Both the position numbers and the translations under genes were made by a program. A stretch of 64,000 bases of DNA from Syntrophales bacterium (GTDB lineage: Bacteria; Desulfobacterota; Syntrophia; Syntrophales; UBA2210), in the NCBI GenBank assembly GCA_963662405.2, contig CAXXKT010000001.1, forward strand, positions 416,001 through 480,000, read 5' to 3'. Position 1 is the stretch's first letter. The number at the start of each line of letters is the position of its first letter. Below, in pieces: positions 3,948 to 28,695 of the stretch. The notes below the pieces were generated by a model. The model did not search any database, had not been told where the DNA came from, and saw only the letters and a program-made list of their open reading frames with translations.

Positions 3948-5951
3948 CTAAAATTTTTTGCCTACAATTGTCTCTCTTCTCACGCTCAGATGAAACGGAT
4001 TGTATTCCTTTCCGCCCCCCTCATAGAATTTCAGCAGAAATTCCACAAAGCAGAGCCTGAGAGAGTGTATAAATGCCGCAAGACTGCTGAGGAACAGATT
4101 GAATATATGGAAGATGAGCAGCATGATCATCCCGATCACAAAAGCCAGGATACCTCCCAACACACCGGGCATGAAAGAGGAGATCGTAGAAGAAACCCAG
4201 TCGGAAAGCAGGTTAAAGGAAGACGCAAGATAGAAGGTGGCAAGGCCGACCCCGGCCAACCGTGAGTACGACATGATATCTCCCAGGATGCCGGTGAGAT
4301 CGAAGATCCAGAACACACTCCCCAATCCCCCCATCTGCATGAATGCTCCGACGACAATCAGCACCAGACCCACAAGCATCGGATAGGCCAACGATCCATA
4401 CACTCCGGGGGCCAGCGGAAGCAATTCAATGGTTAGCATTACTTTGAACAGGTAAGGAATACCGAAGATCTCCAGCAGGAATAACCCTGCCTTGCTGACC
4501 ACAATTCCCCAATCCCCTTCCTTAACTCCCTTAACTAAACCGAGAAGATGAGCGAGATTCACGTGTATCAGACCGATTATCAGTGAAAGCGTGATAAAGG
4601 AAATGGGGTCTGAGAGTTGTTTCTGAACCCAGCGCACCAGGGCGAGTGATACGAGGTCTATCTCGAAATACATCTGAAGGAAATCACCCAGATAGGTCCC
4701 CGAAAGGAGACCGAAGACAAGAGCGACCCCTCCACTGATGTACAATACTTTACGAAACAGATCGGTCCCTTCGGTCGTGGGATCGTCGACGAGTTTATCA
4801 AGGATAAAGCGGGCGAGAATCAGCAGGCCCAGCGCGTAGACGACGTCACAGAGCATGAGACCGAAGAAAAAGGCAAAAAAGTAGGCAACACTCGGCGTCG
4901 GGTCCCATCCCCCGTACTTGGGCAAACTAAAGAGATTGACAATCACCTCGAAGGGCTTGATGGGCCGCGGATTCTGGAGCTGCGTCGGGGGCTCATCGGA
5001 AGGAACCGCATCGCGTGCATCGACAAAAGTATTCTCAAGGGATGCATGTATCTCCGATATAATGAAATCGGTTTTGCTCTGGGGAACCCATCCTTCAATC
5101 AAAGCGACATAGTGGGTTTCCGCCATTCGCTCAATCGCGGACAGCATCTCATCCTCCAGGGAGACCGTCTCCCTGTACAGGGCGATCCGTTCCAGATTCT
5201 CGGAGGTAATCGTTTCTATCTCCTTCTCGAGGGCGTCGATCTCTCCTTTTTTATCTTCAATGATATCATTCTTTTTTATAATGAATTCCCTCAGGGTGAC
5301 ATCTTCCGGAGGAACATCCAGAGGCAGAGACCCGAGGTCTCGCGCCACCGCCTCTACCAGATTCTGCTCGGTAGTTCTGGCAATAGTATAGACCACCGTT
5401 TCCTCTTCAGAAGAAGCGATAACCTTTTGAATGATATGCTCACCGGTCTTTTCCAGGAATGCCTTGGCTGCCGGCAGCGGAAACACGAATACCCTGGCTG
5501 AAAGATAACCACCCGAGTAGTATAGATCTCTTAAGGGGAGATTGATCTCTTGTGCGAGGATATCCAGGTACCTCGCCAGTCCATTCATGGTAGCGATATC
5601 GGTTTCCAGCTTTATAGCATTCTCGCGGAGGCGGGTACACTGGTCGCGCAATCTATCGGTCCGGTACAGGATTGTGTCAAGTGGCTCAGCTGCCCTCTCT
5701 TCCGGTATGAGGACTTTATGCTCGCCCCTGATATACGATAGGATATCGTTAATATTGACGGTTATTTTTCGTATAAGATTTCTTTTTGCTTCGACTGCGG
5801 CTAAATCGGCGGGGTTCAGTTCCTGGGGTTCTTCGATATGGAGGACGCCAATTTCCTGCAAACGTTCCAAGGTCTCTTGAGAAGCATCTTTGGCGGTTAC
5901 CACTCTGACCTTGGACATTACTTCAGGTGTATTGATAAGCAATGGGATCAT
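3948..5951 (-). CDS. ntpI: V/A-type ATPase subunit I (a)
   Basis: DPTP, SYSRL and HSLRLCFVEF motifs. Confidence 0.95.
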   Translation of the reverse strand: MIPLLINTPEVMSKVRVVTAKDASQETLERLQEIGVLHIEEPQELNPADLAAVEAKRNLIRKITVNINDILSYIRGEHKVLIPEERAAEPLDTILYRTDRLRDQCTRLRENAIKLETDIATMNGLARYLDILAQEINLPLRDLYYSGGYLSARVFVFPLPAAKAFLEKTGEHIIQKVIASSEEETVVYTIARTTEQNLVEAVARDLGSLPLDVPPEDVTLREFIIKKNDIIEDKKGEIDALEKEIETITSENLERIALYRETVSLEDEMLSAIERMAETHYVALIEGWVPQSKTDFIISEIHASLENTFVDARDAVPSDEPPTQLQNPRPIKPFEVIVNLFSLPKYGGWDPTPSVAYFFAFFFGLMLCDVVYALGLLILARFILDKLVDDPTTEGTDLFRKVLYISGGVALVFGLLSGTYLGDFLQMYFEIDLVSLALVRWVQKQLSDPISFITLSLIIGLIHVNLAHLLGLVKGVKEGDWGIVVSKAGLFLLEIFGIPYLFKVMLTIELLPLAPGVYGSLAYPMLVGLVLIVVGAFMQMGGLGSVFWIFDLTGILGDIMSYSRLAGVGLATFYLASSFNLLSDWVSSTISSFMPGVLGGILAFVIGMIMLLIFHIFNLFLSSLAAFIHSLRLCFVEFLLKFYEGGGKEYNPFHLSVRRETIVGKKF

Positions 5952-8116: not shown

Positions 8117-9046
8117 ATGAGATACTATGCGGACGACAGCTACCTCCACGCGAGGATTTACGCCATGAGGAGCCGTCTCATCCCATCCGACGGGTACGCC
8201 CCGCTCCAGCGGGAGTACGAGGCCTCATATGCCGGCCCCCACGGGATGATCGAGGCAAAGGAGGGGACCTTCCGGGAGCAGATCGCCCCTATCATTCATT
8301 TGGCCGAGGCGACGGAGCGATACGCCCCCCTCTTTATCGCGTTTCTCCGCCGGTACGAGGCGAATAACGTGAAGCTCCTCCTGGCAAAGGCATTCGGGAG
8401 GCGATCCATCGAACAGTGGTACGATATCGGCCCCTACGCCACCCTCGATCGGGATCTCTTCGATGGTGATCCGGCCCCGGACGACCTGCAGGCGGCCCTG
8501 GCCGGGACCTACCTGGACGGGATATTCGAGGGAAGGGCAACCTACGAGCGGATCGAGGATCGCGTTGATATCCTCACCGCCCGGCACTTCTTTGACACGT
8601 CGGACGCCTTCCCCCCCGAGGGGCGGGAGGTCTTCCGGGATTTCATCCTCCGACGGCTCGCCGTCCTCATGGTCATCCGGCAGTGGCGGTTCCGGGTCAC
8701 TTACGGCTGGAGCGACGAGCGGATCTGGGCCTACCGGGACGAACTGGGAGCCCTCTTCGGGGAGACCGACTGGCCGCAGGTGAGGGAGCTCGTGGGGGTG
8801 CTCGTCCGGCGGCTCAGGGAGATGGGGGGGCAGACCCCGGGCCCGGCGGAGGCGGAGTCATTCCTCGAACGTTCCTATTACCGGTGGGTCGCGTCGATGT
8901 TTCACCGGGATTTCCACTCCGTCCACTGCGTGATGGCGTACCTGTGGCTCCTGGACTATCAGATACGGAACCTCTTGTGCATCATCGAGGGGATCAGGTT
9001 CGGCCTGTCCCCCGAGGCGATACTCGAAACGATCATCAGCGATTGA
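8117..9046 (+). CDS. V/A-type ATPase subunit C (operon 2)
   Basis: YLHARIYAMRSRL, YEANNVK and YQIRNL..IIEG motifs. Confidence 0.85.
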   Translation: MRYYADDSYLHARIYAMRSRLIPSDGYAPLQREYEASYAGPHGMIEAKEGTFREQIAPIIHLAEATERYAPLFIAFLRRYEANNVKLLLAKAFGRRSIEQWYDIGPYATLDRDLFDGDPAPDDLQAALAGTYLDGIFEGRATYERIEDRVDILTARHFFDTSDAFPPEGREVFRDFILRRLAVLMVIRQWRFRVTYGWSDERIWAYRDELGALFGETDWPQVRELVGVLVRRLREMGGQTPGPAEAESFLERSYYRWVASMFHRDFHSVHCVMAYLWLLDYQIRNLLCIIEGIRFGLSPEAILETIISD

Positions 9047-9054
9047 GGACGCCT

Positions 9055-10947
9055 ATGTTCGTCAAGTCCGATATCAGGAGGGTCTCCATCGCCCTCGAAC
9101 GGCGGTTCTACCACGAGGTCTACCGTGCTCTCGGCGAAGCGGGGATCATTCACCTGGCCCCCCCGCGGGACCGGGACGCCGTGATGGACGCGCCCCTGCG
9201 TGAGGAAGAGACACGGGTAAAAGAGATCCTCGCGGGGATCGAACATGCCTTGCAGACCCTTCATATCGAGCCGGGGGCGACCGCCGGGCACGCGATCGAT
9301 ACCGCTCGTGACGGGGCCTTCGCCTCGAAGGTGCAGCGGGAGCTTGAGCGCGTGGAACGGGTGCGTTCGCGGATTCATGAAACATTGGAAACGGCGGACC
9401 GGCGCGTGGAGTACCGCGCGGCCCTGGACCGGATGGGGATCGACCCGCCGGCCCTGCACGGGGCACGGCTGGTCCGGACGGTCTTCGGGACCGTGGCGGA
9501 GACCGAGTGGGAGCCGCCGACCGGCGAGCGATTCGTCGTTGCAAAGGCCAATAGCTACGTCTGCGGCGCCGCCCTTCCGGCAGATTTCCCCGCCATGCTT
9601 CAGTTTCTGAGGGGATACGGCTTTACGGACCATTCCAACGAGATCACCGGTATGTCCGTCACGGAACTGGAGTTTCGCGCGGAGACCCTGAAGGGGCGGC
9701 TCGCCACCCTCGATCGGTATCTGGTCAATCTGCGCAAGACGGTGGGGCCGACCCTGGCGGAGCTGTATGCCCCCTACCGGGAATACGGGGAGGTCTTCGC
9801 AGCGATGAAGCTCTCCCTCTTCTCCGCGAAGGCCCTTTTCATCGCGGGGTGGATGGACGCGAAGGACCGGGAGTGGCTCTTCGAGATCCTCCGGGGGATC
9901 TGCGGCGACCGCTTCATCGCCGTCGTCTCCGATCGGCGGGACCCCGATGCCCCGGTGCGCCTCATGAACAGCCGGCTCCTCAGGCCCTTCGAGCTCCTCG
10001 TGAAGACGATGGGGATGCCGGCGAACAGCGAGATCGACCCCACGCCCCTGACGGCCGTTACCTTCGTCGTCATGTTCGGCCTGATGTTCGGCGACCTCGG
10101 CCAGGGGATCGTCATCGCCCTCGGCGGCCTCCTCCTCCGGCGGATGGCGAAGATGCGAGGAGACCCGGAATCGACCATCGGCCAGGCCGGGGGGATCTTG
10201 GTCGCCTGCGGCCTCTCCGCCGCCGTCTGCGGCATCCTCTACGGCAGCGTCTTCTCGAACGAGCACCTCATCCCCGCGCTCCTCTTCCATCCCATCGAAA
10301 ATATCATGCCCCTCTTCGCCGTCACGATCCTTCTCGGGGTCCTCTTCATCAGCCTGGGACTCGGCGTCAACGTCCTCAACAACCTGATGAACGGGAACTA
10401 TACCGAGGCACTCCTCGAGAAGCGGGGGCTCGCCGTCTTCATCCTCTACGGCGCCGTCGTGATCCTTGCCGTGCGCTGCACCCTCACCGGGCAGGGACCC
10501 TCGCCGTGGGCGGTCGGCGCCTTCGTCCTCTTCCCCCTCGCGGTCTTCTCGCTCCGGGGCGTCCTCGGCCCGCTCCTTTTCAAGAGTCAAAAACCGCACA
10601 GCGCGGTCGAATACATCATCGAGACCTGCGTGGAGATCCTGGAGATCGGCCTGAGCATGCTGGCCAACACCGTCTCCTTCATCAGGGTCGGTGCCTTCGC
10701 CCTCTCCCACGCGGGTCTGAGCATCGTGACGTACACCCTCGCCGGGATCGTCGATCCGGCGATGCGCTCCGTGGGTGCCATCATTGTCATCATCGTGGGG
10801 AATGTCTTCATTATCGGCTTCGAATGCCTCATCTGTCTGATCCAGTCGATGCGGCTCGAGTACTACGAGTTCTTCAGCAAGTTTTTCAGGGGGGACGGGG
10901 TGGGCTTTGTCCCCTTCAGACTCAAGGCAACAAACCCGGAGGTGTAG
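9055..10947 (+). CDS. V/A-type ATPase subunit I (operon 2)
   Basis: EIDPTP, GLMFGDLGQG, SFIRVGAFALSH, QSMRLEYYEFF; start taken at MFVKS. Confidence 0.95.
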   Translation: MFVKSDIRRVSIALERRFYHEVYRALGEAGIIHLAPPRDRDAVMDAPLREEETRVKEILAGIEHALQTLHIEPGATAGHAIDTARDGAFASKVQRELERVERVRSRIHETLETADRRVEYRAALDRMGIDPPALHGARLVRTVFGTVAETEWEPPTGERFVVAKANSYVCGAALPADFPAMLQFLRGYGFTDHSNEITGMSVTELEFRAETLKGRLATLDRYLVNLRKTVGPTLAELYAPYREYGEVFAAMKLSLFSAKALFIAGWMDAKDREWLFEILRGICGDRFIAVVSDRRDPDAPVRLMNSRLLRPFELLVKTMGMPANSEIDPTPLTAVTFVVMFGLMFGDLGQGIVIALGGLLLRRMAKMRGDPESTIGQAGGILVACGLSAAVCGILYGSVFSNEHLIPALLFHPIENIMPLFAVTILLGVLFISLGLGVNVLNNLMNGNYTEALLEKRGLAVFILYGAVVILAVRCTLTGQGPSPWAVGAFVLFPLAVFSLRGVLGPLLFKSQKPHSAVEYIIETCVEILEIGLSMLANTVSFIRVGAFALSHAGLSIVTYTLAGIVDPAMRSVGAIIVIIVGNVFIIGFECLICLIQSMRLEYYEFFSKFFRGDGVGFVPFRLKATNPEV

Positions 10948-10948
10948 G

Positions 10949-11287
10949 ATGACCAGGAACAAAAAGGCTGTCATTTTTCTGTTGACGTGTCTCATCGTCG
11001 CCCCCTTTGTCATATTCCCCGCCGTGATGCTGGCGGCCGGCGATGAAGCGGCCGAGGCCGCCCTGGACGGGGGATGGGTAGGGATGGCGTACCTGTCCGC
11101 CGCCCTGGCCGTGGGGCTGGCCTGCATCGCGAGCGCCTTCGCCGTCGCCCGGATCGGTTCGGCGGGGATCGGCGCGATGAGCGAGAAGGAGGAGCTGACG
11201 GGGCGGATACTGATCTTCCTCGGTCTTGCCGAAGGGATCGCTATCTACGGCCTGATCATCGCGATCATGATCCTGAACAAGCTGTAG
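10949..11287 (+). CDS. V/A-type ATPase rotor subunit K, single hairpin plus N-terminal hydrophobic segment
   Basis: GLAEGIAIYG motif. Confidence 0.92.
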   Translation: MTRNKKAVIFLLTCLIVAPFVIFPAVMLAAGDEAAEAALDGGWVGMAYLSAALAVGLACIASAFAVARIGSAGIGAMSEKEELTGRILIFLGLAEGIAIYGLIIAIMILNKL

Positions 11288-11288
11288 C

Positions 11289-11597
11289 ATGAAGATATTT
11301 ATTATCGGTGACATCGATACGGTAAGCGCCTTCCGCCTCTCGGGGGTGGAAGGGGTGATCGCCGACAGGGAGAACGTCCCGGAACGCCTCGAAGAGGTGC
11401 TCCGGGGGGGAACGGCGGGGATCGTGATGGTGACGAGCGAACTCGCCGGGGACCTCCAGGAGCGGATCACGCAGATCAACCTCGCCCCGGAGGGGCCCGT
11501 CGTGATCGAGATCCCGGGTATCGACGAGCCTGAGGGATTCCGCCGGTCCGTCGTGGGGTACATCGCCGAGGCCCTCGGCATCTCCCTCGAATCGTAG
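11289..11597 (+). CDS. V/A-type ATPase subunit F (operon 2)
   Basis: MKIFIIGDIDTVSAFRLSGVEG..PVVIEIP. Confidence 0.92.
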   Translation: MKIFIIGDIDTVSAFRLSGVEGVIADRENVPERLEEVLRGGTAGIVMVTSELAGDLQERITQINLAPEGPVVIEIPGIDEPEGFRRSVVGYIAEALGISLES

Positions 11598-11610
11598 GAA
11601 AGGGGTCGCC

Positions 11611-12213
11611 ATGAAAGAGCCGCCGCTGGAAGAGTCGATCAGGAAGGAGGCCGAGGAGACCGTGCGCGCCGTCAGGGAACGGGAGGCCGCTGAGATCCGG
11701 GAAATGGACGAGTCCTGCGCCGCCGAGATTGAGGAATTTAAAAAGAAGACAGAGTCAGAGACCCGGGCGCGGATCGAGCAGGAACGATCCCGGCTTGAAA
11801 ACAAAGGCCTCCTGGAACGGAAAAAACTGAAACTGCGCGGCCTCGAAGCATTCATCGGCCGTATGGTGGAGGAGGCGGTGGGGACCATGCGGGACGACCC
11901 ACGGTATAAGGAATTCTTCCTGGACCGGGTGCGCGAGGCCGCCCATGAAATACAGGCCGGCATCGAGGTTTCCCTGCATACGGCAGACCTCCCCCTCGAA
12001 AAGGAGATCATGGCGGCCGCGGGGAAGACGGGGCGAAACCCCGACGTCGCGGTGCGCGCGGACCCGGCGATCCGGTGGGGAGGGTGCGCCATCAGCGACG
12101 GGGCAACGGGGCGCATCTTCAACAGCACCATTGAGCGGATCTACTACCGGCAATCGGCGACGATCCGCCGGGAGATCACGAAGATCCTGAACGAGAAGGG
12201 CTTCTCCTTCTAG
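11611..12213 (+). CDS. V/A-type ATPase subunit E (operon 2)
   Basis: Coiled coil plus GGC..NSTIE C-terminal motif. Confidence 0.85.
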   Translation: MKEPPLEESIRKEAEETVRAVREREAAEIREMDESCAAEIEEFKKKTESETRARIEQERSRLENKGLLERKKLKLRGLEAFIGRMVEEAVGTMRDDPRYKEFFLDRVREAAHEIQAGIEVSLHTADLPLEKEIMAAAGKTGRNPDVAVRADPAIRWGGCAISDGATGRIFNSTIERIYYRQSATIRREITKILNEKGFSF

Positions 12214-12230
12214 CTGACGGAGGCAGGGAC

Positions 12231-14003
12231 GTGGAAGAGATGCTGACAGGACGGGTGATATCGGTAAACGGCCCGATCGTCAAGGCGGCGGGCCTCAGGG
12301 GAATACGGATGTTCGACATCGCCGAGGTGGGGGCCGACCGGTTGATCGGCGAGGTGATCCGTCTGATCGGGGACATCACCGTCATCCAGGTGTACGAGGA
12401 CAACACGGGGCTGATGCCGGGAGACGAGGTGACTTCTTCCTGCCGCCCCCTGTCGGTCCTCCTGGGACCGGGTCTCATCGCGAACATCTACGACGGGATC
12501 CAGCGCCCCCTCGTCGGGATCTCCGAGGTCTGCGGCGCCTATATCCGCAAGGGGATCAAGCTCTCTCCCCTCGACACGAAGAAGAAATGGGAATTCAACC
12601 CTCTGATAAAGGCGGGGACCGCGGTGCGGGAGGGGGACATCCTTGGAGAAATCCCGGAGTCTCCACTCGTTACGCACCGGGTTCTCGTCCCCCCCGGCGT
12701 ATCCGGCACGCTGGCCGCAATCGTCGGGTCGGGGGAGTATACGATCGAGGATGAGCTCTACACCGTCGAGAACGGCGCCGCCCCCTACCAGGGAAAACTG
12801 GCCGCCTACTGGCCGGTCCGCAAACCGCGGCCGAGCCGGGGGAACAAGAAGCCCTTCATCCCCCTGATGACGGGGCAGCGGATCATCGACACCTTCTTCC
12901 CCATCGCCCGCGGAGGGACGGCAACCATCCCCGGCGGGTTCGGGACGGGAAAGACCATGACCCAGCACGCCCTGGCGAAGTGGTGCAACGCCGACATCAT
13001 CGTCTATATCGGGTGCGGGGAGCGGGGCAACGAGATGACCGACGTCCTGACAGACTTCCCGAAGCTGATCGACGAGCGCAACGGACGCCCCCTGATCGAG
13101 CGGACCGTGATGATCGCCAATACCTCGAACATGCCCGTCCCCGCCCGCGAGGTGAGCATCTACACCGGGGTGACCATCGCGGAGTACTACCGCGACATGG
13201 GGTACAGCGTGGCGGTGATGGCCGACTCCACCTCCCGGTGGGCGGAGGCCCTGCGGGAGCTCGCCAGCCGGCTCGGTGACATGCCGGCCGAGGAGGGTTT
13301 CCCTCCTTACCTGGCAACCCGCCTCGCCGAGTTCTACGAACGGGCGGGCCTCGTGGAGACCCTCTCCGGAACCGACGGCGATATCAGCATCATCGGCGCG
13401 GTATCCCCCCCCGGGGGGGACTTCTCGGAGCCCGTCACCCAGCACACCTCGCGCTTCGTGCGGTGCTTCTGGGCCCTGGACAAGATCCTCGCCGATGCCC
13501 GCCACTACCCCTCCATCAGCTGGATCGACAGCTACACCGAGTACCTCCACGACATCGAGGGGTGGTGGAAGGACCTGGACCCCGAGTGGCTCACGATCCG
13601 GGGGGAGGCGATGGGGATCCTCCTCGAAGACAACCGCCTCCAGCAGGTGGTAAAACTCGTCGGGAGCGACGCCATGCCCCCGGCCCAGCAGTTCATCCTC
13701 TTCGTGGCGGAGATGATCAAGAACGCCTTCCTCCAGCAGAACTCCTTCGACCCCGTCGACAAGTACTGCCCCCCGGAGAAACAGCTCAAGCTCCTCAAGG
13801 CGATCCTGGATCTGAACAAAAGAGGAGAGGAACTGGTGAAGGGCGGGATGAGCGTCAAGGAGATCGCCGCCCTCGATGTGGTGTCGGAGATGGTGCGGCT
13901 CAAGTCCGAGGTCCCCAACAAGGAGCTGGGCAGGATCGACGACTACCGGGAGCGGCTCGCCGCGGGGCTCGATTCGCTCAAAGAGAAAACGGGAGAGGTG
14001 TAG
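12231..14003 (+). CDS. V/A-type ATPase subunit A (operon 2)
   Basis: [17 protein letters not shown] and [12 protein letters not shown] motifs. Confidence 0.97.
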   Translation: MEEMLTGRVISVNGPIVKAAGLRGIRMFDIAEVGADRLIGEVIRLIGDITVIQVYEDNTGLMPGDEVTSSCRPLSVLLGPGLIANIYDGIQRPLVGISEVCGAYIRKGIKLSPLDTKKKWEFNPLIKAGTAVREGDILGEIPESPLVTHRVLVPPGVSGTLAAIVGSGEYTIEDELYTVENGAAPYQGKLAAYWPVRKPRPSRGNKKPFIPLMTGQRIIDTFFPIARGGTATIPGGFGTGKTMTQHALAKWCNADIIVYIGCGERGNEMTDVLTDFPKLIDERNGRPLIERTVMIANTSNMPVPAREVSIYTGVTIAEYYRDMGYSVAVMADSTSRWAEALRELASRLGDMPAEEGFPPYLATRLAEFYERAGLVETLSGTDGDISIIGAVSPPGGDFSEPVTQHTSRFVRCFWALDKILADARHYPSISWIDSYTEYLHDIEGWWKDLDPEWLTIRGEAMGILLEDNRLQQVVKLVGSDAMPPAQQFILFVAEMIKNAFLQQNSFDPVDKYCPPEKQLKLLKAILDLNKRGEELVKGGMSVKEIAALDVVSEMVRLKSEVPNKELGRIDDYRERLAAGLDSLKEKTGEV

Positions 14004-14006
14004 CCT

Positions 14007-15401
14007 ATGGCCGCTGAGATCGAATACACGAACCTGTCCGGGATCTCCGGCCCCCTGATCTTCGTCGAGGGGGTCAAGGGCGTCGGGTACGGCGAGATCG
14101 TGGAGATTCGGGACGAATCGTCCGAGGTGCGGATCGGCCAGACCCTCGAGGTGGACGAGGACCGCGCCATCGTCCAGGTCTTCGAGGGGACGAGCGGGCT
14201 CTCCGTCAAGGGGGCGCGGGTCACCTTCGTGGGGAGATCGCTCGAGATCCCCGTCCACCGCGACATGCTCGGCCGGGTCTTCGACGGGCTGGGGCGCCCC
14301 ACCGACGGCGCCCCCCCGGTGATCACCGACAACATGATGAACGTCAACGGCCTCCCCGTCAACCCCTGGAGCCGGGAGTACCCGCGCGACTTCATCCAGA
14401 CGGGGATCTCGGCCATCGACGGGATGAACACCCTGATCCGGGGGCAGAAGCTCCCCATCTTCTCCGGGAGCGGGATGCCCCACAACCTGATCGCCGCCCA
14501 GATCGCGCGGCAGGCCCGGATCCTCTCCTCGGAGGAGGAGTTTACCGTAATCTTCGCCGCCATGGGGGTCAAGTTCGACATGGCGCGCTTCTTCATCGAC
14601 TCCCTTGAGGAATCGGGGGTCCTCACGCATTCGGCCATATTCCTCTCCCTCGCCGACGCCCCCTCGATCGAACGCCTCATCACCCCCCGCGTCGCCCTGA
14701 CGCTGGCCGAGCACCTCGCCTTCGAGGAGGGGATGCACGTCCTCGTCATCATGACCGACATGACGAACTACTGCGAGTCCCTCCGCGAGCTGTCCAGCTC
14801 GCGGGGCGAGATCCCCTCCCGGAAGGGTTACCCCGGCTACCTCTACAGCGACCTCGCCGCGATCTACGAGCGCGCCGGGCGGCTCAAAGGAATGAACGGC
14901 TCGATCACGCAGGTCCCGATCCTCACCATGCCGAGCGACGACATCTCCCACCCCGTCCCCGACCTGACGGGGTACATCACCGAGGGGCAAATCGTCCTGG
15001 AGCGCGAACTTTTCAACAAGGGGATCTATCCCCCCATCGCCGGGCTCCCCTCCCTGTCGCGCCTGATGAAGGACGGGATCGGCGAGGGGCGGACGCGCAA
15101 GGACCACGCCCAGAACGCCGCCCAACTCTTCGCCTCCTACGCGAAGGTCAAACGGATCAGGGCCCTGGCGGCCATCGTTGGCGAGGAGGAGCTCTCCGAA
15201 CTGGACAAGATCTACCTGAAATTCGGGACCGCCTTCGAGGAGCGCTTCCTCCGGCAGGGGCCCGACGAGAACCGCTCGATCATCGAGACCCTCGACCTGG
15301 GGTGGCAGATGCTCTCCCTCCTCCCGAAGGACGAGCTGTACCGGGTCTCCATGGAGGAGATCCAGCGCTACTACATACCGCAGCAGGAGGCCAGTGGATA
15401 A
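14007..15401 (+). CDS. V/A-type ATPase subunit B
   Basis: [33 protein letters not shown] motifs. Confidence 0.97.
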
Positions 15402-16024
15402 TGCCGGCGATCGATATCCCCCCCACCAAATCGTCCCTGCGCAGGCTCAAGGAGGACCTCGCCTTCGCCTACGAGGGGTACGACCTCCTCAACCAGAAGC
15501 GCGAGATCCTCGCCATCGAGATCATGCGACACATCGGCGAGATCCGGAAGATGGAGGCCGCCCTCGCGGGGGTCCTCGGCGAACTGTACGCGGCCTACCG
15601 TAAGGCGGCCGTCGAAATGGGATCGGACACGATCACCCGGAAGAGCTGTTCAGAGAAACGGTCCTATTTCTTCCACATGGAATTCACGAAACTGATGGGG
15701 CTCCGGCTCCCGGTGATCAGACTCTCCCCCAAGCGCCCCCGGATCACCGCCACCCTGCCGGGGACGACCGTCGCCTACGATGAGGCGAAGGAAAAATCGC
15801 GCGCGGCCCTCGAGGCCCTCGCCGAGTACGCCACCATCACCAAGGCGATCATGATGCTCTCACGGGAACTGAAGAAGGTCCAGCGGCGGGTCAACGCCCT
15901 CGAGAAGATCTTCATCCCCCAGCACGAAGAGGCGAAGAAGTACATCTCCGACCGGATCGAGGAGATGGAACGGGAAGAGATCTTCGTCAAGAAGCTGATC
16001 AGGCAGCGGGTGGAGGGGGAGTGA
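15401..16024 (+). CDS. V/A-type ATPase subunit D
   Basis: PTKSSL..GYDLL..KR and QRRVNALE motifs; start at MPAID. Confidence 0.93.
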   Translation: MPAIDIPPTKSSLRRLKEDLAFAYEGYDLLNQKREILAIEIMRHIGEIRKMEAALAGVLGELYAAYRKAAVEMGSDTITRKSCSEKRSYFFHMEFTKLMGLRLPVIRLSPKRPRITATLPGTTVAYDEAKEKSRAALEALAEYATITKAIMMLSRELKKVQRRVNALEKIFIPQHEEAKKYISDRIEEMEREEIFVKKLIRQRVEGE

Positions 16025-16082: not shown

Positions 16083-16490
16083 CTAAGTTTGGACAACAAA
16101 GTCCCCAACCTGTACCTCTTCAAGCTTAAGCAAGAAAGTATTTCCTGGAGTGATCGTTTCTGTAACCGTCTCTGGCTGAACAAAGGTACTAAACAAATCC
16201 AATCCTTTTCGAGTTCGCTCCTTTACTATTTCTTTAGTGTCAGGGTGCTTCCCATAACCACATGATTTTAGGGTGCTGATCTTTTCTTGTACGTGTGTGG
16301 CTTCGGCTTTGCCTTTGACTATTTCAAGTTTTTCTAATTCCTCTTTTGTTTCTGGATCAACAATTGTTTCACCCAGACCGATAATAATAAACTTGTCGCC
16401 TTGATTTATGCCCCCGTTTCTTCCCTTATTAATAACAACGGTATAAGGATCAACTACCTTTAAAACCTTTGCAATATATTTGTCAGGCAT
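16083..16490 (-). CDS. AT-rich hypothetical protein, small beta-barrel resembling the FlgT C-terminal domain
   Basis: VVINKG..GINQGDKF..I.DPET.EEL pattern; SD GAGGAG; start overlaps the upstream stop. Confidence 0.7.
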   Translation of the reverse strand: MPDKYIAKVLKVVDPYTVVINKGRNGGINQGDKFIIIGLGETIVDPETKEELEKLEIVKGKAEATHVQEKISTLKSCGYGKHPDTKEIVKERTRKGLDLFSTFVQPETVTETITPGNTFLLKLEEVQVGDFVVQT

Positions 16491-17007
16491 TATTCTCCTC
16501 CTGTTGATCAAGTTCTGAAAGAATACTAAATGGTATGACTGGTCTGATTATAATATTGTTCAACTGGGACATAATGGAAGATATTGAAGCCTCGTCGATC
16601 AACTCCTTAATAATCTTTATTTGTATAAGTTTTTCTTGTACGTGATGTACAACGCCCACCAGAGCGACTCTTTCAACACCGTCTTCTACCATGTAACATC
16701 CAACAACAATGTTGTTAAGAAAATTTTCATTTTTCCTAATGATGAGTATTTTCTCTTTGTTAAGAAATTTAATGGGAGATTCTTGGCTGGGCACAAGCTT
16801 TCTCGATTGCCAAATATCAAAAATTACTTTCAGAAGGATAAAACAAGCAGAAAGCAATAATAACAATGTAAAAAGAAGCCATTTAATTGAAATTTGGGTA
16901 TTAATATCTATGAATAGTTGCGTAATTCCGGAAAGAAATCCAATAACACCCAAGGTGATTGAAAGACCTGATAAACTAAAAAAATGTTTCTTTATTTCTT
17001 CACGCAT
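16483..17007 (-). CDS. AT-rich hypothetical membrane protein with two N-terminal TM segments
   Basis: Long ORF in AT-rich DNA, translationally coupled to the 16083 gene. Confidence 0.7.
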   Translation of the reverse strand: MREEIKKHFFSLSGLSITLGVIGFLSGITQLFIDINTQISIKWLLFTLLLLLSACFILLKVIFDIWQSRKLVPSQESPIKFLNKEKILIIRKNENFLNNIVVGCYMVEDGVERVALVGVVHHVQEKLIQIKIIKELIDEASISSIMSQLNNIIIRPVIPFSILSELDQQEENNA

Positions 17008-17078
17008 GCTTACTTTAAACCCTAGCAAGTAGTCTAAACTAGAGGCGTTTCCCGTATTAATTTACAACACATTCCCTA

Positions 17079-17257
17079 TCACAACACACAAAAGCCCCAT
17101 CGCTCGGGTTCGAGTAACGGGGCTTTTCGCAATCAGACCATACGCGCTCCTTTGTGTTTGAGGTGCGGGCCGGACAGGTAAAGCTAACAAAAAACAAGTT
17201 CGTAATGAAATCGAAGGGAAGGATACCTCCCCGGGGGATTCCGGTCAAGGATTTAAT
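17079..17257 (-). repeat. ~178-bp promoter-leader-terminator repeat, copy 1
   Basis: Aligns over its full length with 18638, 20016 and 21294. Confidence 0.97.
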
Positions 17258-17302: not shown

Positions 17303-18566
17303 TCACCTATGGTGGCCCTCCGTACGTACATGGCGAAGCAGGATCGGGCGCCCGAACATGGCGATGATTACCAGGAGACCGAAGCGGGTCAGTTTGGATC
17401 AGGCGAATAATCAGGGCAACCGATGCGGAGGCGCTGGCCAGCGCGCCAAACCCTGTGAAGACCCGCGCACCCACCCGTTCCCGAAACGCGAGGCCGCATA
17501 CGACGGTAAAAGTGAACAGAAATGCGAGGCTGGCAGCTTCAACGAGGGTGGTGAGCGCCCCGAAAACGGAGAGGATCGCCGCCAGCGCGCCGAGTACTAT
17601 CACCGCCCGGTTCGGTATGCCTGCCTTGTTCTTGTGATCGAGGGCGGCCGGCAACTCACTGTCTTCCGCAACCTCATAGACGAGCCGCGCTGTTGCAAAG
17701 AGCGTCGAATTGATGGCCGATCCGGTAGAGAACGCCGCGGCAATCGTCACAATGACGAGGCCGGCGGTCCCGAGTGCCTGCCGGCCCGCGATGGCAAGAG
17801 CCACTTCCTGGTGCTGCATAACCTGGTCCGCCCCGATCAGCATCACCGTCCCCAGCGCGACCACGATGTACACACCGATCACGGCAATGATGGCCGACAG
17901 CACCGCGAGCGGGAGGGTTTTCCGCGGGTTATCGATATCATCATAATCGTAGGTCAGCAGCTGAAAACCCTCATAGGCCATAAACACGGAGGCCGCGCCG
18001 AATAACGCCGCGCCGATCCCCGTGTCCGGCACGTTCCGGGAGAGCATCGGCGGGTCCCACTGGGCAAGCCCCCACCCCGCCAGCCCCACAAGAACGACTA
18101 TCTTGAACCACACGAGAAAGACCTCGACACCGCCGGCTTCACCGACGCCGCGCAGATTCAAGCAAATGAACGCAATCAGGATGGCAACGGCGGCCGCGCG
18201 CGGGAACCACGGTCCCAGACCGGCAACATACCCGAGGTACTGCCCGAAGGTGGAGGCGTATACCGCGTTTGTCAGCACATACCCGACGATGAGCACCCAC
18301 GAAAGGCTGCCGGCGGCCCCCTCCGCGTTGATCTCGCGGAGAAACGTGAACGCGCCTCCCCCTTCGCCGTAGTAATCGGCCAGTTTTACGTAGCTGTATC
18401 CCGTGGCCAGGGCGATGAGGCCGGCAGCCAGGAAACTGAGCCATGTCAATGCGCCGGCGATTCCGACAACGACGCCGAGTGTGGAAAAGATGCCGCCGCC
18501 GATCATACCGCCGACGGCCATCGACCATGTGGCGTTGAAATTAAGCTTGGTTTGAGGCTGATTCAT
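17303..18566 (-). CDS. APC family amino acid permease, frameshift near the C-terminus
   Basis: GGMIGGGIF and FMAYEGF motifs; last TM helix GLLVIIAMFGRPILL continues in another frame to a TGA at 17303. Confidence 0.9.
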
Positions 18567-18637
18567 GGTAAATTAGGGACACTTCCCTATTTTTTACAAA
18601 TTTCTTTTTATCTGTTTTGGCCTCTCAGCCATCCCCG

Positions 18638-18813
18638 TCACAAAACACAAAAGCCCCATCGCTCGGGTTCGAGTAATGGGGCTTTTCGCAGTCAGACCAT
18701 ACGCGCTCCCTTTTGTGTATGAGGTGCGGGCCGGATGGGTAAAACTAAAAAAGTTTGTAATGAAATCAAAAGAAAGGATACCTCCCCCCGAGGATTCCGG
18801 TCAAGGATTTTAT
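18638..18813 (-). repeat. ~178-bp repeat, copy 2
   Basis: Direct alignment with copy 1. Confidence 0.97.
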
Positions 18814-18874: not shown

Positions 18875-19936
18875 TCACTGTTTGTCCAGCAACCCATCAT
18901 CGAGTATCTGCTGGAAATGGTCTTTCACGGTCTGCTCGACGGGGATATACGACATGCCCAGATCTGTCTTGCTGTAAGAGCTATCGAGTCTGATATGAAT
19001 CCCGACATTTCTGCTCGCAAATTTCCGCGTGTAGCCCATCACCGGGGCAATGAGCCAGAACAGGAATTTGGGGGCCTGTCTCCGGGGAAACGGATACCGG
19101 TCTCCAAAATGTTTTCGAAGGATATTCGCTATATCGAGAAGCGATACTTCTTCACTCACGACGATGTGCCGCCCGCTCGCTTCCGGGGTGTACCCCGCCT
19201 TGACGTGGGCGGACGCCACGTCACGCACATCAACGATACAACTGTACAATTCCGGAACCCCGGTTTTGTAGATACCATTGCCAAAGAGGATCATGGTGTT
19301 GATGCTCATGGAGTCTTTCCTCTTCGACAGAGAAGGGCCAAGGATCCATCCGGGGTTGATCGTCAGCAGATCCCATTGCTCCTGTTCCGCGGCGAGAGCC
19401 CAGGCTTCTCTTTCCGCGATTGTCTTTGAATAGTTATAGGGCTGGTGGTCGGCACTGCTCGTGACGTTCCATTCCTTTTCAGTGAGTATGCCCTCCGGGG
19501 CCAGCGCCATGTCGGCATTGTCGCCGTATATCGCCACGACACTGCTGGTGAGCACCACCCGCTTCATCGTCGGGGTTCTTTGCGCCGATTCGAGGACATT
19601 GCGTGTCCCCTCTCTGGCCGGTCGTATCAATTCTTCTCCAGGATTCTTGATTCCGGTTATGAAGTAGGGTGAGGCGGTGTGCATCACCAGCTCGCACCCT
19701 CGCATCGGTTCATCGAAACTTCCCGGATTCAGAAGATCCGCCTTGAACAACGTCAACTGCCCGGTCGCTGTTTCCGCCAAGGCTTTCAGATGTTCGATCT
19801 TTTGCATATCCGAAGGGTCGCGTACCGTTGCGTGAACAGGGGTTCCCTCTTCCAGCAAGATCTTGATTATCCAGGAAGCCACGTAACCCGTACCCCCCGT
19901 AACCAATACCGGTTTGGTCTTATCGATTTCGCGCAT
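18875..19936 (-). CDS. NAD-dependent epimerase/dehydratase (aldehyde reductase/dihydroflavonol reductase-like extended SDR)
   Basis: TGGTGYVA, HTASP and YNYSK motifs; start MREID after SD AAGGAGG. Confidence 0.92.
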   Translation of the reverse strand: MREIDKTKPVLVTGGTGYVASWIIKILLEEGTPVHATVRDPSDMQKIEHLKALAETATGQLTLFKADLLNPGSFDEPMRGCELVMHTASPYFITGIKNPGEELIRPAREGTRNVLESAQRTPTMKRVVLTSSVVAIYGDNADMALAPEGILTEKEWNVTSSADHQPYNYSKTIAEREAWALAAEQEQWDLLTINPGWILGPSLSKRKDSMSINTMILFGNGIYKTGVPELYSCIVDVRDVASAHVKAGYTPEASGRHIVVSEEVSLLDIANILRKHFGDRYPFPRRQAPKFLFWLIAPVMGYTRKFASRNVGIHIRLDSSYSKTDLGMSYIPVEQTVKDHFQQILDDGLLDKQ

Positions 19937-20015: not shown

Positions 20016-20192
20016 TCACAAAACACAAAAGCCCCATCGCTCGGTTCGAGTAACGGGGCTTTTCGCAATCAGACCATACGCGCTCCTTTTATGTATCAGG
20101 TGCGGGCCGGACAGGTACAGCTAACAAACAAGCTCGTAATGAAATCAAAGGGAAGGATACCTCCCTGGGGGGATTCCGGTCAAGGATTTTAT
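20016..20192 (-). repeat. ~178-bp repeat, copy 3
   Basis: Direct alignment with copy 1. Confidence 0.97.
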
Positions 20193-20515: not shown

Positions 20516-21097
20516 TTAGCTTACAGGTTTCTTGTCCTGAATTTTCCCCATCCGTTTTCCCAGCCAGTCTTTCAGCCTGTCAACAAGAGAAGGCTTTTTG
20601 AACGTGAGCTTTGTTTGCGCCGTCTTATCGGAACTCATGGACGTGACTTTGGCGGTATAGACACCAGCCGGAATAGTCGGTTGGGTAATGACAACAAACT
20701 GATTATATTTCCCGTCATCGGCATACGTGCCGCTGACGTTCCCTTTCAGGATTCCGGTGACCTTCGCGAGGGGGCCTATCGGGGCGGTAAATTGACCGGC
20801 GGCATCGACTTTTCCGTCAGCTACCACCACCTCGGTTTCATCAGGGCCAAAGAGCGTTACGAATACGGAATCTTCAGGCACGAATCCCGACCCTCCGAAT
20901 ACAATCTTTTGCTTCATCAATGTAGCAGCACCGAGACTGACGCATTCGGGGTTCACAATCAATTGAGGTCCCGTAATCTCAGGATCAAAGGTTTGTGGCC
21001 CGGCCGTACACCCGGTAAGCAGAAGGCCCCCTGTTACCCCCCATAACACTACCAGAAACAAAAACGCCAAAACCCTGCTTTTTTGAATGCTCAACAT
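20516..21097 (-). CDS. Putative lipoprotein with beta-rich domain, function unknown
   Basis: Signal peptide with lipobox LLTGC. Confidence 0.75.
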   Translation of the reverse strand: MLSIQKSRVLAFLFLVVLWGVTGGLLLTGCTAGPQTFDPEITGPQLIVNPECVSLGAATLMKQKIVFGGSGFVPEDSVFVTLFGPDETEVVVADGKVDAAGQFTAPIGPLAKVTGILKGNVSGTYADDGKYNQFVVITQPTIPAGVYTAKVTSMSSDKTAQTKLTFKKPSLVDRLKDWLGKRMGKIQDKKPVS

Positions 21098-21293: not shown

Positions 21294-21471
21294 TCACACG
21301 ACACAAAAGTCCCATCGCTCGGTTCGAGAAACGGGCTTTTCGCAATCAGGCCATAGGCGTTCCTTTTTGTTTGAAGTGCGGGCCGGACAGATACAGCCAG
21401 CAATAAAATAAGTTCGTAATGAAATCAAAAGGAAGGGTACCTCCCCGGGGGATGCCGGTCAAGGGCTTTAT
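21294..21471 (-). repeat. ~178-bp repeat, copy 4 (more diverged)
   Basis: Alignment with more substitutions than copies 1-3. Confidence 0.95.
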
Positions 21472-25242: not shown

Positions 25243-25978
25243 GGGTCTTGACTAGAACAGCGGTTTATTTTTGAAGTTCTTTAACAACAATTTATAGATA
25301 TCGGTGTTACGGTTGTTGAACCGGAACTCACATTCCTTGAGATGCAGGTAAAAGGTTGATTGTGGAATACCATGGAACTTCATCAGCCTCCGTTTTGCGA
25401 ATGACCAGAAGGATTCAATGCCATTGATGTGGCTTTTCCCCCTGGCAAATTCATTGGCTCCGTGATGAACACGGTAATGCTTTTTGTATCCCAAGTCAAC
25501 CAAACCATCATAGCCTCTCCAACTATCTGAATGTATGACACTATTCGGTTCAACTTTGCCCCTGATAATGGCCTGGAGAGTCTTCCTGGCGCAATCGGGA
25601 ACGATTTCGGTATAGACACTGCCTTTTCGTTGCAGGATACCGAATACAGGGGTTTTTCTCCCGGCCCCACGGCCTCGTTTCCCTTTGATACGTTTTGCAC
25701 CGAAATATGATTCGTCAACCTCGATTTCACCCTGAAATGGTGATTCTTCTTCGCACAGATCAGCTATACGTTGACGAATCAAAGACAGATATCGATTCAC
25801 CGTATTTCTATTGAGTTTTGTTAAAAGAGCGATGGTTTGAGCATCCAAATCGAAGGCAAAATACTTCACGATCTCTCTAAATTTTGCCTCTGAAATTTTG
25901 GAATTTTTTACATACTTGTTACTTATTGACATGACTAGACTCTTAACATATTTCCGTGTGCTGTTCTAGTCAAGACCC
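25243..25978 (-). mobile_element. IS1595-family (IS1016-like) insertion sequence, 736 bp
   Basis: 19-bp perfect terminal IR GGGTCTTGACTAGAACAGC; 8-bp target duplication TAAAACAA at 25235-25242 and 25979-25986. Confidence 0.96.
25252..25932 (-). CDS. IS1595-family transposase
   Basis: EIEVDESYFG, HSDSWRGY, HINGIESFWS and KECEFRFN motifs. Confidence 0.97.
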   Translation of the reverse strand: MSISNKYVKNSKISEAKFREIVKYFAFDLDAQTIALLTKLNRNTVNRYLSLIRQRIADLCEEESPFQGEIEVDESYFGAKRIKGKRGRGAGRKTPVFGILQRKGSVYTEIVPDCARKTLQAIIRGKVEPNSVIHSDSWRGYDGLVDLGYKKHYRVHHGANEFARGKSHINGIESFWSFAKRRLMKFHGIPQSTFYLHLKECEFRFNNRNTDIYKLLLKNFKNKPLF

Positions 25979-26045
25979 TAAAACAAAAGCCCCGTTGCTC
26001 ATTTCGAGAAACGGGGCTCTTGTAATCGGTCCGTATGTGCTCGTT
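25979..26045 (-). repeat. Partial degenerate copy 5 of the repeat (terminator half); terminates the Sel1 gene
   Basis: ACAAAAGCCCCgttGCTC..TTCGAGaAACGGGGCTcTTgtAATC aligns with the repeat terminator. Confidence 0.8.
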
Positions 26046-26051
26046 GTTTCC

Positions 26052-26849
26052 TTATTTATCTGTGCTCTTCAGCATTTCAAGCAGTTGCGGCGTCGCCTTG
26101 CCGTCAGGATACAGACCCTTCGTGCGCTGAAACTCCTGGATCGCAGTCTTCGTCTTGCCCCCGAACATCCCATCAATCGGACCCGGCGCGTATCCCAGAT
26201 CGGTCAGGCGCTGCTGGACTTGACGGACCAGTTGCTGCCCGGTGGACCTGTTGGTGCTCCGAGTCGATGGCGCGGCCTGGTTCATCTTTTTTACATACTC
26301 CTGTATACCCGATTCCGAGAGCAACTGACTGTCAACCTGAACACCATGAGCCTGGGCCAGGCGAAACCACCTGACCGCTTCCCTGTTGCTCTGCGGGACC
26401 CCGATCCCCTGGGCATACATCAGTCCGAGCAGATCCATGGAGGGCCCGTGCTCCAGAGCGGCGGCCTGTTCGAGATGGCGTACCGCCACCATCGAATTAG
26501 AGAAAATCAATTCCATGCCGATAAAGTAATGCGCCGCCGGGGAACCGTTCTCCGCGGCCTGCCGTATCCAGTACTCGTATTGCCTGATATCTCGCTGTAC
26601 CCCTTCCCGGTTCAGATACATGTTGGCGAGCATGAACTGTCCATACGGGCTTCCCGCCTGGGCAGCCGTTTTATATTCCTGGAAAGCGGTAACAAAATCC
26701 TTGTTCTGATATGCCTCGTCCGCCTTTTCCTCAGCGACGCTTGACTTGTACAGGTCTACCGTCTGAGACAATGTCCCCGCGCAACCGGACAAAAAACCGC
26801 CTAAGACAATCAAACCAGCTATAACCAAAACCTTTCGATAGCGAATCAT
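26052..26849 (-). CDS. Lipoprotein with Sel1-like repeats and a C-terminal peptidoglycan-binding domain
   Basis: LSGC lipobox; LGLMYAQGIGVPQS..AVRWF; LGY..GPIDGMFG.KT..AI.EFQ. Confidence 0.92.
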   Translation of the reverse strand: MIRYRKVLVIAGLIVLGGFLSGCAGTLSQTVDLYKSSVAEEKADEAYQNKDFVTAFQEYKTAAQAGSPYGQFMLANMYLNREGVQRDIRQYEYWIRQAAENGSPAAHYFIGMELIFSNSMVAVRHLEQAAALEHGPSMDLLGLMYAQGIGVPQSNREAVRWFRLAQAHGVQVDSQLLSESGIQEYVKKMNQAAPSTRSTNRSTGQQLVRQVQQRLTDLGYAPGPIDGMFGGKTKTAIQEFQRTKGLYPDGKATPQLLEMLKSTDK

Positions 26850-26916
26850 CGTCAGTCTCCCTTATCTTTGTTTGCCCTCACCCTGCCTTCAATTGTAAAT
26901 CACCGGACAGGTACCG

Positions 26917-27810
26917 TTACTTCGCACCACCGCCGCTGCTGCTGTTATGGACGAGATAGCGATTACCGCTGTCCGTCACCACATAGAAATTATGGCTGTC
27001 ATCGACCTGCATATTATACAGCGTGTGGCGTGCCCGATGGTAATCGACTGAAACAATCGTGACCATACAACCGTCTATCTGCACCTCGTCACCTTCCCGC
27101 AGGTCGCGCACCCTCTTCCAGCCGGTGTCGCTGAGGAGCCGTTCGGTTCCGGTAGCGGAAAGCTCTCCGTTGATCGTATAGAGATGATTTCCCTCGACGG
27201 TGTAGACATCGACCACCGGTTTGATTACCGTAGTCTGATACCCGATATCGTAGGTCAGGACCCGATCACCGGGGCGGATCTGTTCAAAGGGTTTTGCCGA
27301 TCCGTCCGCCATGGTCACGAGCGTATCGGGCAGAAAACACCCCCCCGACTGGGAGATAATCGTCTGTCTCTCCTGCTCCAACCGGTCGACTTTCTTCTTG
27401 AGCCGTTCAACTTCCTTCTCGGTGGCGGCTGCTTCGGTATAGTGCCGATTTGCCGCATCTTCATATGTCTCTTTGCCATCTCCCTTGAACCATCCCCGAC
27501 TTTGGTCGTTCTTGACATCATTTATGACCCCGAGGTGCTGTTCCTTGACCGCGTGCGCCTCCAGGCCGCTAATGGTCTCTCGAGTGTTTTCGATGTCTCT
27601 CTCGACTTCTTTCACTGTTCGCGGCGTAACAGGAGCAGGGGGCGGGGTCTCAGGCTTGGGGGCCGGCTTTGCATACCTATAACCCCTTGACGGCCCCGGG
27701 GACAGACAGAATGCGACAGCATCCTGAATTGAGAATACGATTGCTGTGCCGATCACCAGAACGACAAACATTGACTGGAGCATGTTTTCTCTTTTCATAA
27801 TATCCCTCAA
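26917..27810 (-). CDS. Secreted protein with a C-terminal Hint (bacterial intein-like) domain
   Basis: Signal peptide, Pro-rich linker, coiled coil, then GGCFLPDTLV...YNMQVDDSHNFYV...LVHNS. Confidence 0.9.
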   Translation of the reverse strand: MRDIMKRENMLQSMFVVLVIGTAIVFSIQDAVAFCLSPGPSRGYRYAKPAPKPETPPPAPVTPRTVKEVERDIENTRETISGLEAHAVKEQHLGVINDVKNDQSRGWFKGDGKETYEDAANRHYTEAAATEKEVERLKKKVDRLEQERQTIISQSGGCFLPDTLVTMADGSAKPFEQIRPGDRVLTYDIGYQTTVIKPVVDVYTVEGNHLYTINGELSATGTERLLSDTGWKRVRDLREGDEVQIDGCMVTIVSVDYHRARHTLYNMQVDDSHNFYVVTDSGNRYLVHNSSSGGGAK

Positions 27811-28565: not shown

Positions 28566-28594
28566 AGGATACCCTTCCGACTTATCACGGTCAA
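28566..28594 (-). promoter_or_regulatory. Sigma70 promoter with the same hexamers as the repeat promoter
   Basis: TTGACC-N17-TATCCT. Confidence 0.6.
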
Positions 28595-28604
28595 GAATTA
28601 TGTG

Positions 28605-28695
28605 TTTAATTAGGGACAGCGCCCATTTTTGTAAATGCCTAAATTAAATCTTATTTTCTGTGATAGGAGAAAAATGGGCGCTGTCCCTAATTAAA
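28605..28695. repeat. 91-bp element with 26-bp perfect inverted repeats (MITE/REP-like)
   Basis: TTTAATTAGGGACAGCGCCCATTTTT ... AAAAATGGGCGCTGTCCCTAATTAAA. Confidence 0.85.

Follow-up and report, generated by a model that had tools for sequence, protein, structure and literature searches.

Many accessory genes of the Syntrophales bacterium studied here, and of its relatives, are preceded by a recurrent leader module, laid out as a sigma-70-like promoter, a variable leader of about 60 nt, a Shine–Dalgarno (SD) sequence with an ATG, a covarying terminator hairpin and a co-oriented accessory gene. The module is real and selected, and we found no description of it in the main texts and abstracts consulted. 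We give about an even chance to the interpretation that it is a portable cis-acting transcription attenuator gated directly by the ribosome, the downstream genes probably being transcribed only if a ribosome loads onto the nascent RNA early enough.

The window, by which we mean the whole 64-kb stretch of DNA that was analysed, holds five copies of the repeat, all members of a 58-copy family in the genome from which it comes (the home genome); their features are collected in Table 1. A sequence-only reading of the window had described a conserved SD and two-codon open reading frame (ORF) directly before the hairpin, and this is what the letters hold. On the minus strand copy 1 reads GGAG-CGCGT-ATG GTC TGA, the identical ORF is present in copies 2 and 3, and copy 4 reads GGAA-CGCCT-ATG GCC TGA, so that start and stop are kept while the middle codon changes. 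Copy 5 has ACG GAC CGA at 26034-26026 and, as had been said, lacks both. The reported gap of 5 nt between stop and hairpin arm is likewise correct when measured from the TGA to the A-run that pairs with the U-run; the first G-C pair lies 9 nt away. Copies 1–4 open with TTGACC, a spacer of 17–18 nt and TATCCT or TACCCT, about 105 nt before the ATG. The hairpin of copy 1 folds at -23.7 kcal/mol (z -6.86). A simple terminator scan of the window did not list the family hairpins, which carry an internal mismatch and an interrupted U-run.

Table 1. Coordinates, within the window, of the leader module copies and of the genes behind them.
Feature	Position	Strand	Remarks
Copy 1, sigma-70-type promoter	17220..17248	-	-35 TTGACC 17248-17243, 17-nt spacer, -10 TATCCT 17225-17220
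Copy 1, leader of ~60 nt that differs between subfamilies	17151..17213	-	Putative transcription start
Copy 1, Shine–Dalgarno GGAG, 5 nt 5' of ATG	17147..17150	-	From sequence
Copy 1, mini-ORF ATG GTC TGA (Met-Val-stop)	17133..17141	-	From sequence
Copy 1, terminator-like hairpin (17127-17090) and interrupted U-run	17086..17127	-	From fold and covariation
Copy 2	18640..18804	-	Promoter 18804-18775, SD 18709-18706, ORF 18700-18692, hairpin ~18686-18649
Copy 3	20018..20183	-	Promoter 20183-20154, SD 20086-20083, ORF 20077-20069, hairpin ~20063-20027
Copy 4	21296..21462	-	Promoter 21462-21434 (-10 TACCCT), SD GGAA 21363-21360, ORF 21354-21346, hairpin ~21340-21305
Copy 5	25976..26050	-	3' module only; without promoter, start or stop
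Behind copy 1: AT-rich gene pair	16083..17028	-	181 aa + 142 aa
Behind copy 2: APC-family amino acid permease	17307..18566	-
Behind copy 3: NAD-dependent epimerase/dehydratase	18875..19936	-	Start ATG at 19936, assigned by eye
Behind copy 4: 193 aa, no family found	20516..21097	-

The genes behind these copies are a mixed collection. The 181-aa product behind copy 1 belongs to no Pfam or NCBIfam family and its 142-aa neighbour has a weak FlgT_C match below the cut-off, whereas the epimerase ORF as originally listed extends upstream into the copy 3 element. Judged by eye, the 3' end of the permease gene (window 17370-17390) is about 14 bases short relative to its orthologue in the relative G005, and its last codons are altered. 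In G005, attI-like remnants precede the orthologous permease and epimerase genes, as do promoterless copies that have lost the start or the SD; because of these remnants and decayed copies, it is suggested that some of the window genes entered as cassettes. Copy 5 abuts the stop of a Sel1/peptidoglycan-binding gene and is followed by an IS1595-family element; just upstream of it a Hint-domain protein is followed by the Sel1/peptidoglycan-binding protein (window 26052-27810). Elsewhere in the window, REP-like inverted repeats with more copies genome-wide occur at 28603-28697 and 18574-18596, one of them directly behind copy 2; arginyl-tRNA synthetase domains are split over two overlapping ORFs (36270-37884), a possible frameshift or assembly error; two divergent V/A-type ATPase gene sets (1816-5951 and 8117-16024) lie either side of a universal stress protein gene; and an ordinary TPP riboswitch (63830-63933) stands upstream of a thiamine operon.

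An iterated profile gave 70 matches in the 3.8-Mb home genome, 58 of them with the full 3' part; the set of 58 used below omits the 12 partial matches. A later model again returned 58 home-genome copies, a few of them new. Matches to the model R1 occur in 26 of 31 genomes (the home genome included), with 19–26 copies in some genomes from other genera and families. In a sample of the phylum Desulfobacterota, R1 matched 17 of 151 genomes and R2 20 of 150, both counts being approximate, as some weak false matches are included and the filters lose weak copies; the R2 figure in particular is only approximate because weak matches include false positives, one R2 match being a SAM-I riboswitch terminator and another having no start. 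The exact pattern of the main subfamily matched 23 loci, 18 of them labelled Syntrophales or Syntrophaceae. Two patterns gave one and two matches in viral contigs; among plasmids one query returned a single 46-bp match at chance level and the other none; and a pattern of a distant subfamily had no match in metagenomes. Rfam 15 places no model over the element in the window, nor in 20 and 12 related loci, apart from one weak signal for NsiR1 (E 0.47, below the cut-off).

For the wider alignment 172 copies were taken, of which 144 could be anchored on the stem and 28 could not. An ATG or GTG stands 12–25 nt before the stem in 133 of the 144, and at 18–19 nt in 87, although most copies had been retrieved by models that include the SD-ATG part. 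An SD pairing energy of -5 kcal/mol or better is found in 123 of these 133, whereas a control site 25 nt further upstream reaches it in 8 of 133. A search with a pattern for the hairpin only, without SD or ATG, gave 15 matches in five distant genomes; by eye, 12 have an SD and ATG at the expected distance, two of these 12 as start-stop ORFs. Within the home genome, an SD, ATG and in-frame stop in the family geometry accompany 33 of 52 family hairpins; of the 1254 terminator-like hairpins outside the family, 3 have this arrangement. Among the 58 home-genome copies the start is ATG in 50 and GTG in three, codon 2 is mostly GTC, GCC, ATC or GAC, and codon 3 is TGA in 41 and TAA in one.

An in-frame stop precedes the stem in 108 of the 133 copies, compared with 32 and 18 in the other two frames and 47 expected from shuffles. 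The enrichment persists after clustering at 80% (44 of 60 against 13 and 10 in the other frames; 20.9 expected) and is weaker at 70% (13 of 23 against 7 and 4; 8.4 expected). In the home genome, however, conservation at the stop is about matched by that at the third position of codon 2 and at the bases that follow, and only one of the 17 non-TGA variants is still a stop; with neighbouring bases about equally conserved and so few variants being stops, part of the conservation is put down to shared descent. The sequence-only reading had looked to ATG and TGA alike for conservation in a wider alignment; the start is indeed kept, but the stop is less regular, with TGA (83), TAA (18) and TAG (7) all in use over the 108 copies. 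Nor is a two-codon ORF the defining feature that it appeared to be from the window, as the mini-ORF ranges from start-stop up to six codons, 25 of 133 copies have no stop before the stem, and among divergent matches with an ATG outside the training alignment only 3 of 10 have one. Because starts are found in 133 of 144 copies while the stop is missing in 25 of 133 and in 7 of the 10 divergent copies, we take the ribosome-loading site as the core: judged from sequence, the SD and start are invariant, the stop is common, secondary and not required, and the peptide is free to vary.

The stem of the hairpin that follows covaries. In its lower part, 60 cells carry two-sided changes, compared with 22.5 in shuffles, a count that none of 500 shuffles reached, although kinship among copies inflates it. 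In copies with a stop, the distance from stop to stem is at most 12 nt in 105 of 106 (mode 9), a bound that is partly a product of the fixed start distance and the search window; 34 of 169 copies were dropped from this analysis and from that of SD:arm pairing described below. Ordinary gene-end terminators of the home genome behave differently, 5 of 80 lying within 12 nt of the stop with a peak at 20–45 nt (on crude gene calls), or 1 of 51 under stricter rules. This geometry points to direct blocking of the hairpin. The U-rich top of the 5' arm is conserved beyond what pairing needs, one position being U in 52 of 52 paired cells, 41 of them U-G, and this the ribosome-gate model leaves unexplained.

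It had also been proposed that the SD and AUG are held in the 3' strand of an upstream stem. Such a stem does appear in the minimum-energy folds of copies 1 and 3, yet it does not rise above shuffles: the 5' portion of copy 1 gives a poorer fold than shuffled versions of itself (z +1.97), and over 138 copies the pairing of SD with leader is 0.55 against 0.53 for shuffled leaders, being higher in 78. A single compensatory-looking change in a G005 copy, noticed by eye, was too little to retain the SD-hiding stem. Neither is there a signal for an antiterminator formed by the SD and the 5' arm, since own pairs score -6.01 against -6.13 for permuted pairs (P 0.72, 48 representatives) without covariation. 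Stems overlapping the ORF of the kind known from vmlR and the ARE-ABCF leaders thus find no support in either analysis, of SD-upstream pairing or of SD:arm covariation, and the family sequences yielded no pause signal or antiterminator.

Upstream of this 3' module the conservation is of another kind. A TTGAC[ACT] hexamer stands at the promoter place in 53 of the 58 home-genome copies, and in 51 of those 53 a TA follows after 16–18 nt; the final T of the -10 hexamer is present in just 11 of the 51, which counts against the promoter part of the model. Between lineages the leader and the type of promoter vary while SD, start and hairpin are retained. The start has been lost in 3 of 5 promoterless copies compared with 2 of 53 with a promoter (Fisher p 0.003, on small numbers). 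Two other families (loci L098, L102, L085, L099 and others, in G024 and G029) have another conserved promoter-like motif before the same 3' module, namely TAGATT with a TA 17 nt later. A short palindrome lies over the -10 hexamer of copies 1–4 (17216-17232, 18769-18789, 20149-20166 and 21430-21446) and could be an operator. The promoter half and the attenuator half are also found separately elsewhere, and at 28566-28594 of the window a TTGACC-17-TATCCT promoter without an attenuator precedes a pyridoxamine-oxidase-like gene.

The next ORF is co-oriented with the module at 87 of 91 loci of relatives and 48 of 58 home-genome copies, the corresponding figure for the upstream ORF being 32 of 58. 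Four of the 91 related copies face an oppositely oriented gene, and the copy L253 also faces no gene. The downstream DNA is low in GC, 34 of 58 home-genome copies falling below 48% compared with 14% of genome windows. Defence genes are among those downstream (ThsB, GajA, PD-Lambda-5 A, Ppl-like, Mrr, HNH, SIR2, Cas6, HsdM); in a scan of 59 proteins about ten of the first downstream genes of the home genome matched defence models, ThsB, GajA, PD-Lambda-5 A, Ppl-like, PDC-S31 and PDC-M14A among them. Others encode HD-GYP and GGDEF signalling proteins, transporters, CoA-linked enzymes and many unknowns. The sequence-only reading had drawn a parallel with antibiotic-responsive leaders of ABC-F genes, and for the genes themselves this parallel does not hold: those downstream are unrelated accessory genes, and no ABC-F or other resistance family was seen among 104 home-genome and 91 related downstream proteins, many of which have no Pfam family.

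There is also an association with integrons. An attI-like site follows at a distance of up to about 170 nt in 10 of 58 home-genome and 5 of 94 related copies, compared with none of 156 upstream controls, and attC-like sites follow 3 of 10 attI sites checked. Both intI genes of the home genome, one intact and one split, carry the leader, with Met-Asn-TAA and Met-Ile-TGA as mini-ORFs. These integron integrase genes (G000:C1:30400-31900 and C1:2211700-2214400, the first split by a frameshift) both face their attI-like site. The module is probably not a general intI leader, as a search of the DNA upstream of intI at 57 loci from other genomes, several of them truncated by contig ends, did not find it. 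The hairpins are not attC sites, since most lack the RYYYAAC ... GTTRRRY ends and are located behind a promoter; the attC-like sites are separate.

Comparison of the flanks of the 58 home-genome copies showed that most share none, upstream or downstream, a single subfamily sharing about 70 more bases upstream, and no shared ends, terminal inverted repeats or target duplications, for which reason a MITE or IS-derived repeat was rejected. The copies cluster at insertion hot spots, that is, at tRNA ends and, in the window, in the stretch behind atpD. The four window copies form one subfamily confined to this place in the home genome, which fits local duplication or recombination. No joint between copies was seen in the contigs of two DNA runs from a single sample. 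An IS110-family element lies at the same point just upstream of three copies (L026, L029, L036), and an IS1595-family element directly behind the U-run of two (window 25243-25979; L056). The 3' end of atpD itself (window 15960-16024; L208, L209, L210, L213) is duplicated downstream as fragments of 47–143 bp in G001, G005 and G007; three fragments share one junction, and atpD is read as a site where an island integrates. A displaced 3' fragment of atpD lies directly against the promoter half in two relatives, which had raised the idea of an attP; this is read as an island att site plus a deletion, and the idea was set aside because there are no atpD fragments between the window copies.

Transcription, termination, ribosome binding, polarity and signal are, in what follows, our interpretation of the layout, conservation, spacing, covariation and gene context described above. 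The parts of a ribosome-dependent attenuator are all present: a promoter, a short leader ORF led by a ribosome-binding site, an intrinsic terminator and a co-oriented gene; the module may be taken as a variant of that class, its mechanism and signal being inferred from sequence alone. RNA polymerase would start at the promoter and transcribe the leader, the SD-AUG and a terminator hairpin lying 18–19 nt after the AUG. Were no ribosome loaded when polymerase reached the U-run, the hairpin would close and an RNA of about 125 nt would be released; a ribosome that had loaded and taken its first step would sit on or against the base of the hairpin, so that closure would fail and the downstream gene would be transcribed. 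The peptide would have no role, the stop just parking and then releasing the ribosome at the hairpin edge, and in copies without a stop translation into the hairpin would disrupt it. The switch would most likely read the speed of ribosome loading, which sets the supply of free ribosomes against the speed of transcription, and such a gate would damp newly acquired genes. Loading rate is favoured as the signal because loading must fit within the 1 s or so that polymerase would need for the hairpin, and, the interval being so short, the arrival of the ribosome would matter more than its stalling. Antibiotic sensing, with the downstream genes being unrelated accessory genes, is only one possible input. 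The translation-coupled antitermination envisaged in the sequence-only reading remains the reading that the sequence best supports, although it would operate without an SD-hiding stem or a vmlR-like antiterminator.

Precedent for such direct blocking comes from constructs with the terminator tR2 and from pyrBI, in which, as described in PMC4824070, the hairpin is kept from closing by a ribosome no more than about 10 nt away from the stem, without any alternative structure. When, in E. coli, tR2 lies 5 bp behind a translated stop its efficiency drops from about 90% to below 10%, an effect that disappears without the ribosome-binding site, and formation of the hairpin needs 10–15 nt of free RNA between it and the A site (PMC4824070). 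pyrBI differs in having a 135-bp leader ORF with pause sites reading UTP (PMC4824070), compared with 1–6 codons and a start 18–19 nt from the stem here. The same source states that early in an ORF the ribosome rarely catches polymerase without a pause (PMC4824070), and this rarity is the main gap in the gate model, as well as a reason for our preference for loading rate as the signal. Amino-acid attenuators of the trp, his or ilv type, in which over 20 bp separate the leader ORF from the terminator (PMC4824070), were rejected as a match, since codon 2 is variable (Val, Ala, Ile, Asp, Glu, Lys, stop) with no run of regulatory codons, the distance is at most 12 nt and the downstream genes are unrelated.

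A known leader that resembles the module in its parts is that of Bacillus subtilis vmlR, with an SD and a short ORF (three codons) before an intrinsic terminator, an exchangeable peptide, and read-through favoured by a ribosome on the ORF, which is the polarity also proposed here (PMC9226507). As described there, vmlR has anti-antiterminator and antiterminator stems, NusG pauses, a 219-nt leader and one resistance gene (PMC9226507), while the present family is without supported competing stems, its ORF abuts the terminator and it heads about 60 unrelated genes. The vmlR leader is induced by initiation-arresting drugs and the sequence of its ORF can be swapped (PMC9226507), and it thereby lends weight to a different reading, the one closest to the idea of the sequence-only reading, in which polymerase pauses, the ribosome normally clears the mini-ORF and termination follows, and only a ribosome held at start or stop, by antibiotic, ribotoxin, starvation or phage attack, gives read-through. 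Also in its favour are the T that follows the stop in 74 of 108 copies, a context giving fast release, the defence genes among the first downstream genes and the leaders of both intI genes. Many downstream genes are nevertheless metabolic, transport or signalling genes, with no resistance family in sight; copies without a stop fit poorly with a ribosome that runs through and leaves; and the pause signal or antiterminator that might be expected was not found. We regard it as rather unlikely that the module senses stalling. A reversed polarity, in which without a ribosome the G-rich SD would pair with the pyrimidine-rich 5' arm and block the terminator, while a bound ribosome would release the arm and bring about termination, so that the genes would be on when translation fails, has a parallel in the leader of a Sinorhizobium meliloti DUF1127 gene, proposed to monitor ribosome availability by reciprocal logic (PMC12218461), and SD-to-arm folds can be drawn (median -6.9 kcal/mol). 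They are much weaker than the terminator, however (median -17.7 kcal/mol), the predicted SD:arm pairing averages 0.12 and is no better in own than in permuted pairs, and copies without a stop would undo the switch; we judge this polarity very improbable.

Other possibilities dispense with the ribosome as a gate altogether. The patchy multi-copy distribution, the low-GC sites and the proximity to tRNA ends and IS elements would suit a passive repeat, in which terminator and start are relics of mobile elements or captured gene starts that spread with the promoter, and 'mobile attenuators' from IS terminators have been described (PMC2965389). In a variant of this the ATG would be incidental and a protein antiterminator would control the hairpin; the home genome holds a second NusG-family gene and the U-rich arm is conserved in sequence. 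Yet no flanking homology, inverted ends or shared mobile gene were found, the start is lost more often in promoterless copies, and SD and ATG are retained across families that differ in spacer, codons, choice of stop, leader and even the type of promoter, so that we consider a passive origin, in either form, quite improbable. A few copies face no gene, and some 60 loci would have as their main transcript the terminated RNA, which carries a strong SD and a short ORF; this RNA might itself act in trans, as a minigene, say, or by sequestering ribosomes or tRNA as a sponge. The strong co-orientation with the next gene, the placement before promoterless cassettes and attI sites, and a leader and codon 2 that are not conserved all speak against this, and we attach very little probability to it.

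With regard to its mobility, the ribosome-gated attenuator that we favour fits the loose class of mobile promoters and attenuators. Like putative mobile promoters (PMC3575422) and 'mobile attenuators' (PMC2965389), it places homologous non-coding leaders before unrelated genes within and between genomes; those elements are defined by high DNA identity or IS-derived terminators, and the portions of the two papers available describe no conserved SD-AUG at a fixed distance (PMC3575422, PMC2965389). The terms Syntrophus, Deltaproteobacteria and Desulfo are absent from the main text of PMC2965389. There is a likeness, too, to ORF-11 and ORF-17 of attI1 in class 1 integrons, short SD-led ORFs upstream of cassettes whose peptide is irrelevant (PMC8876359). 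ORF-11 overlaps attI1 and enhances first-cassette translation (PMC8876359), whereas the ORF of the present family precedes a terminator, with attI following at 25–170 nt in the minority of copies that have one.

The broadest form of our proposal, which we offer tentatively and think somewhat doubtful, is that of a phylum-level, peptide-free attenuator serving as a general gate on horizontally acquired DNA, with an accessory regulon of up to about 60 loci switched by ribosome supply without a transcription factor or ligand. Each of the known attenuators based on upstream ORFs serves one locus and responds to one nutrient or drug; the present one comes down to a loading site beside a terminator, can be combined with different promoters and genes, and stands before dozens of acquired genes in a genome. 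Should the proposal hold, this 80-nt part would be a natural minimal read-out of transcription–translation coupling and a new route to the taming of foreign and defence genes, in a host group of poorly studied syntrophic anaerobes. It would mean that these slow-growing organisms front defence systems, integron integrases, attI platforms and captured metabolic genes with one and the same promoter-plus-ribosome gate.
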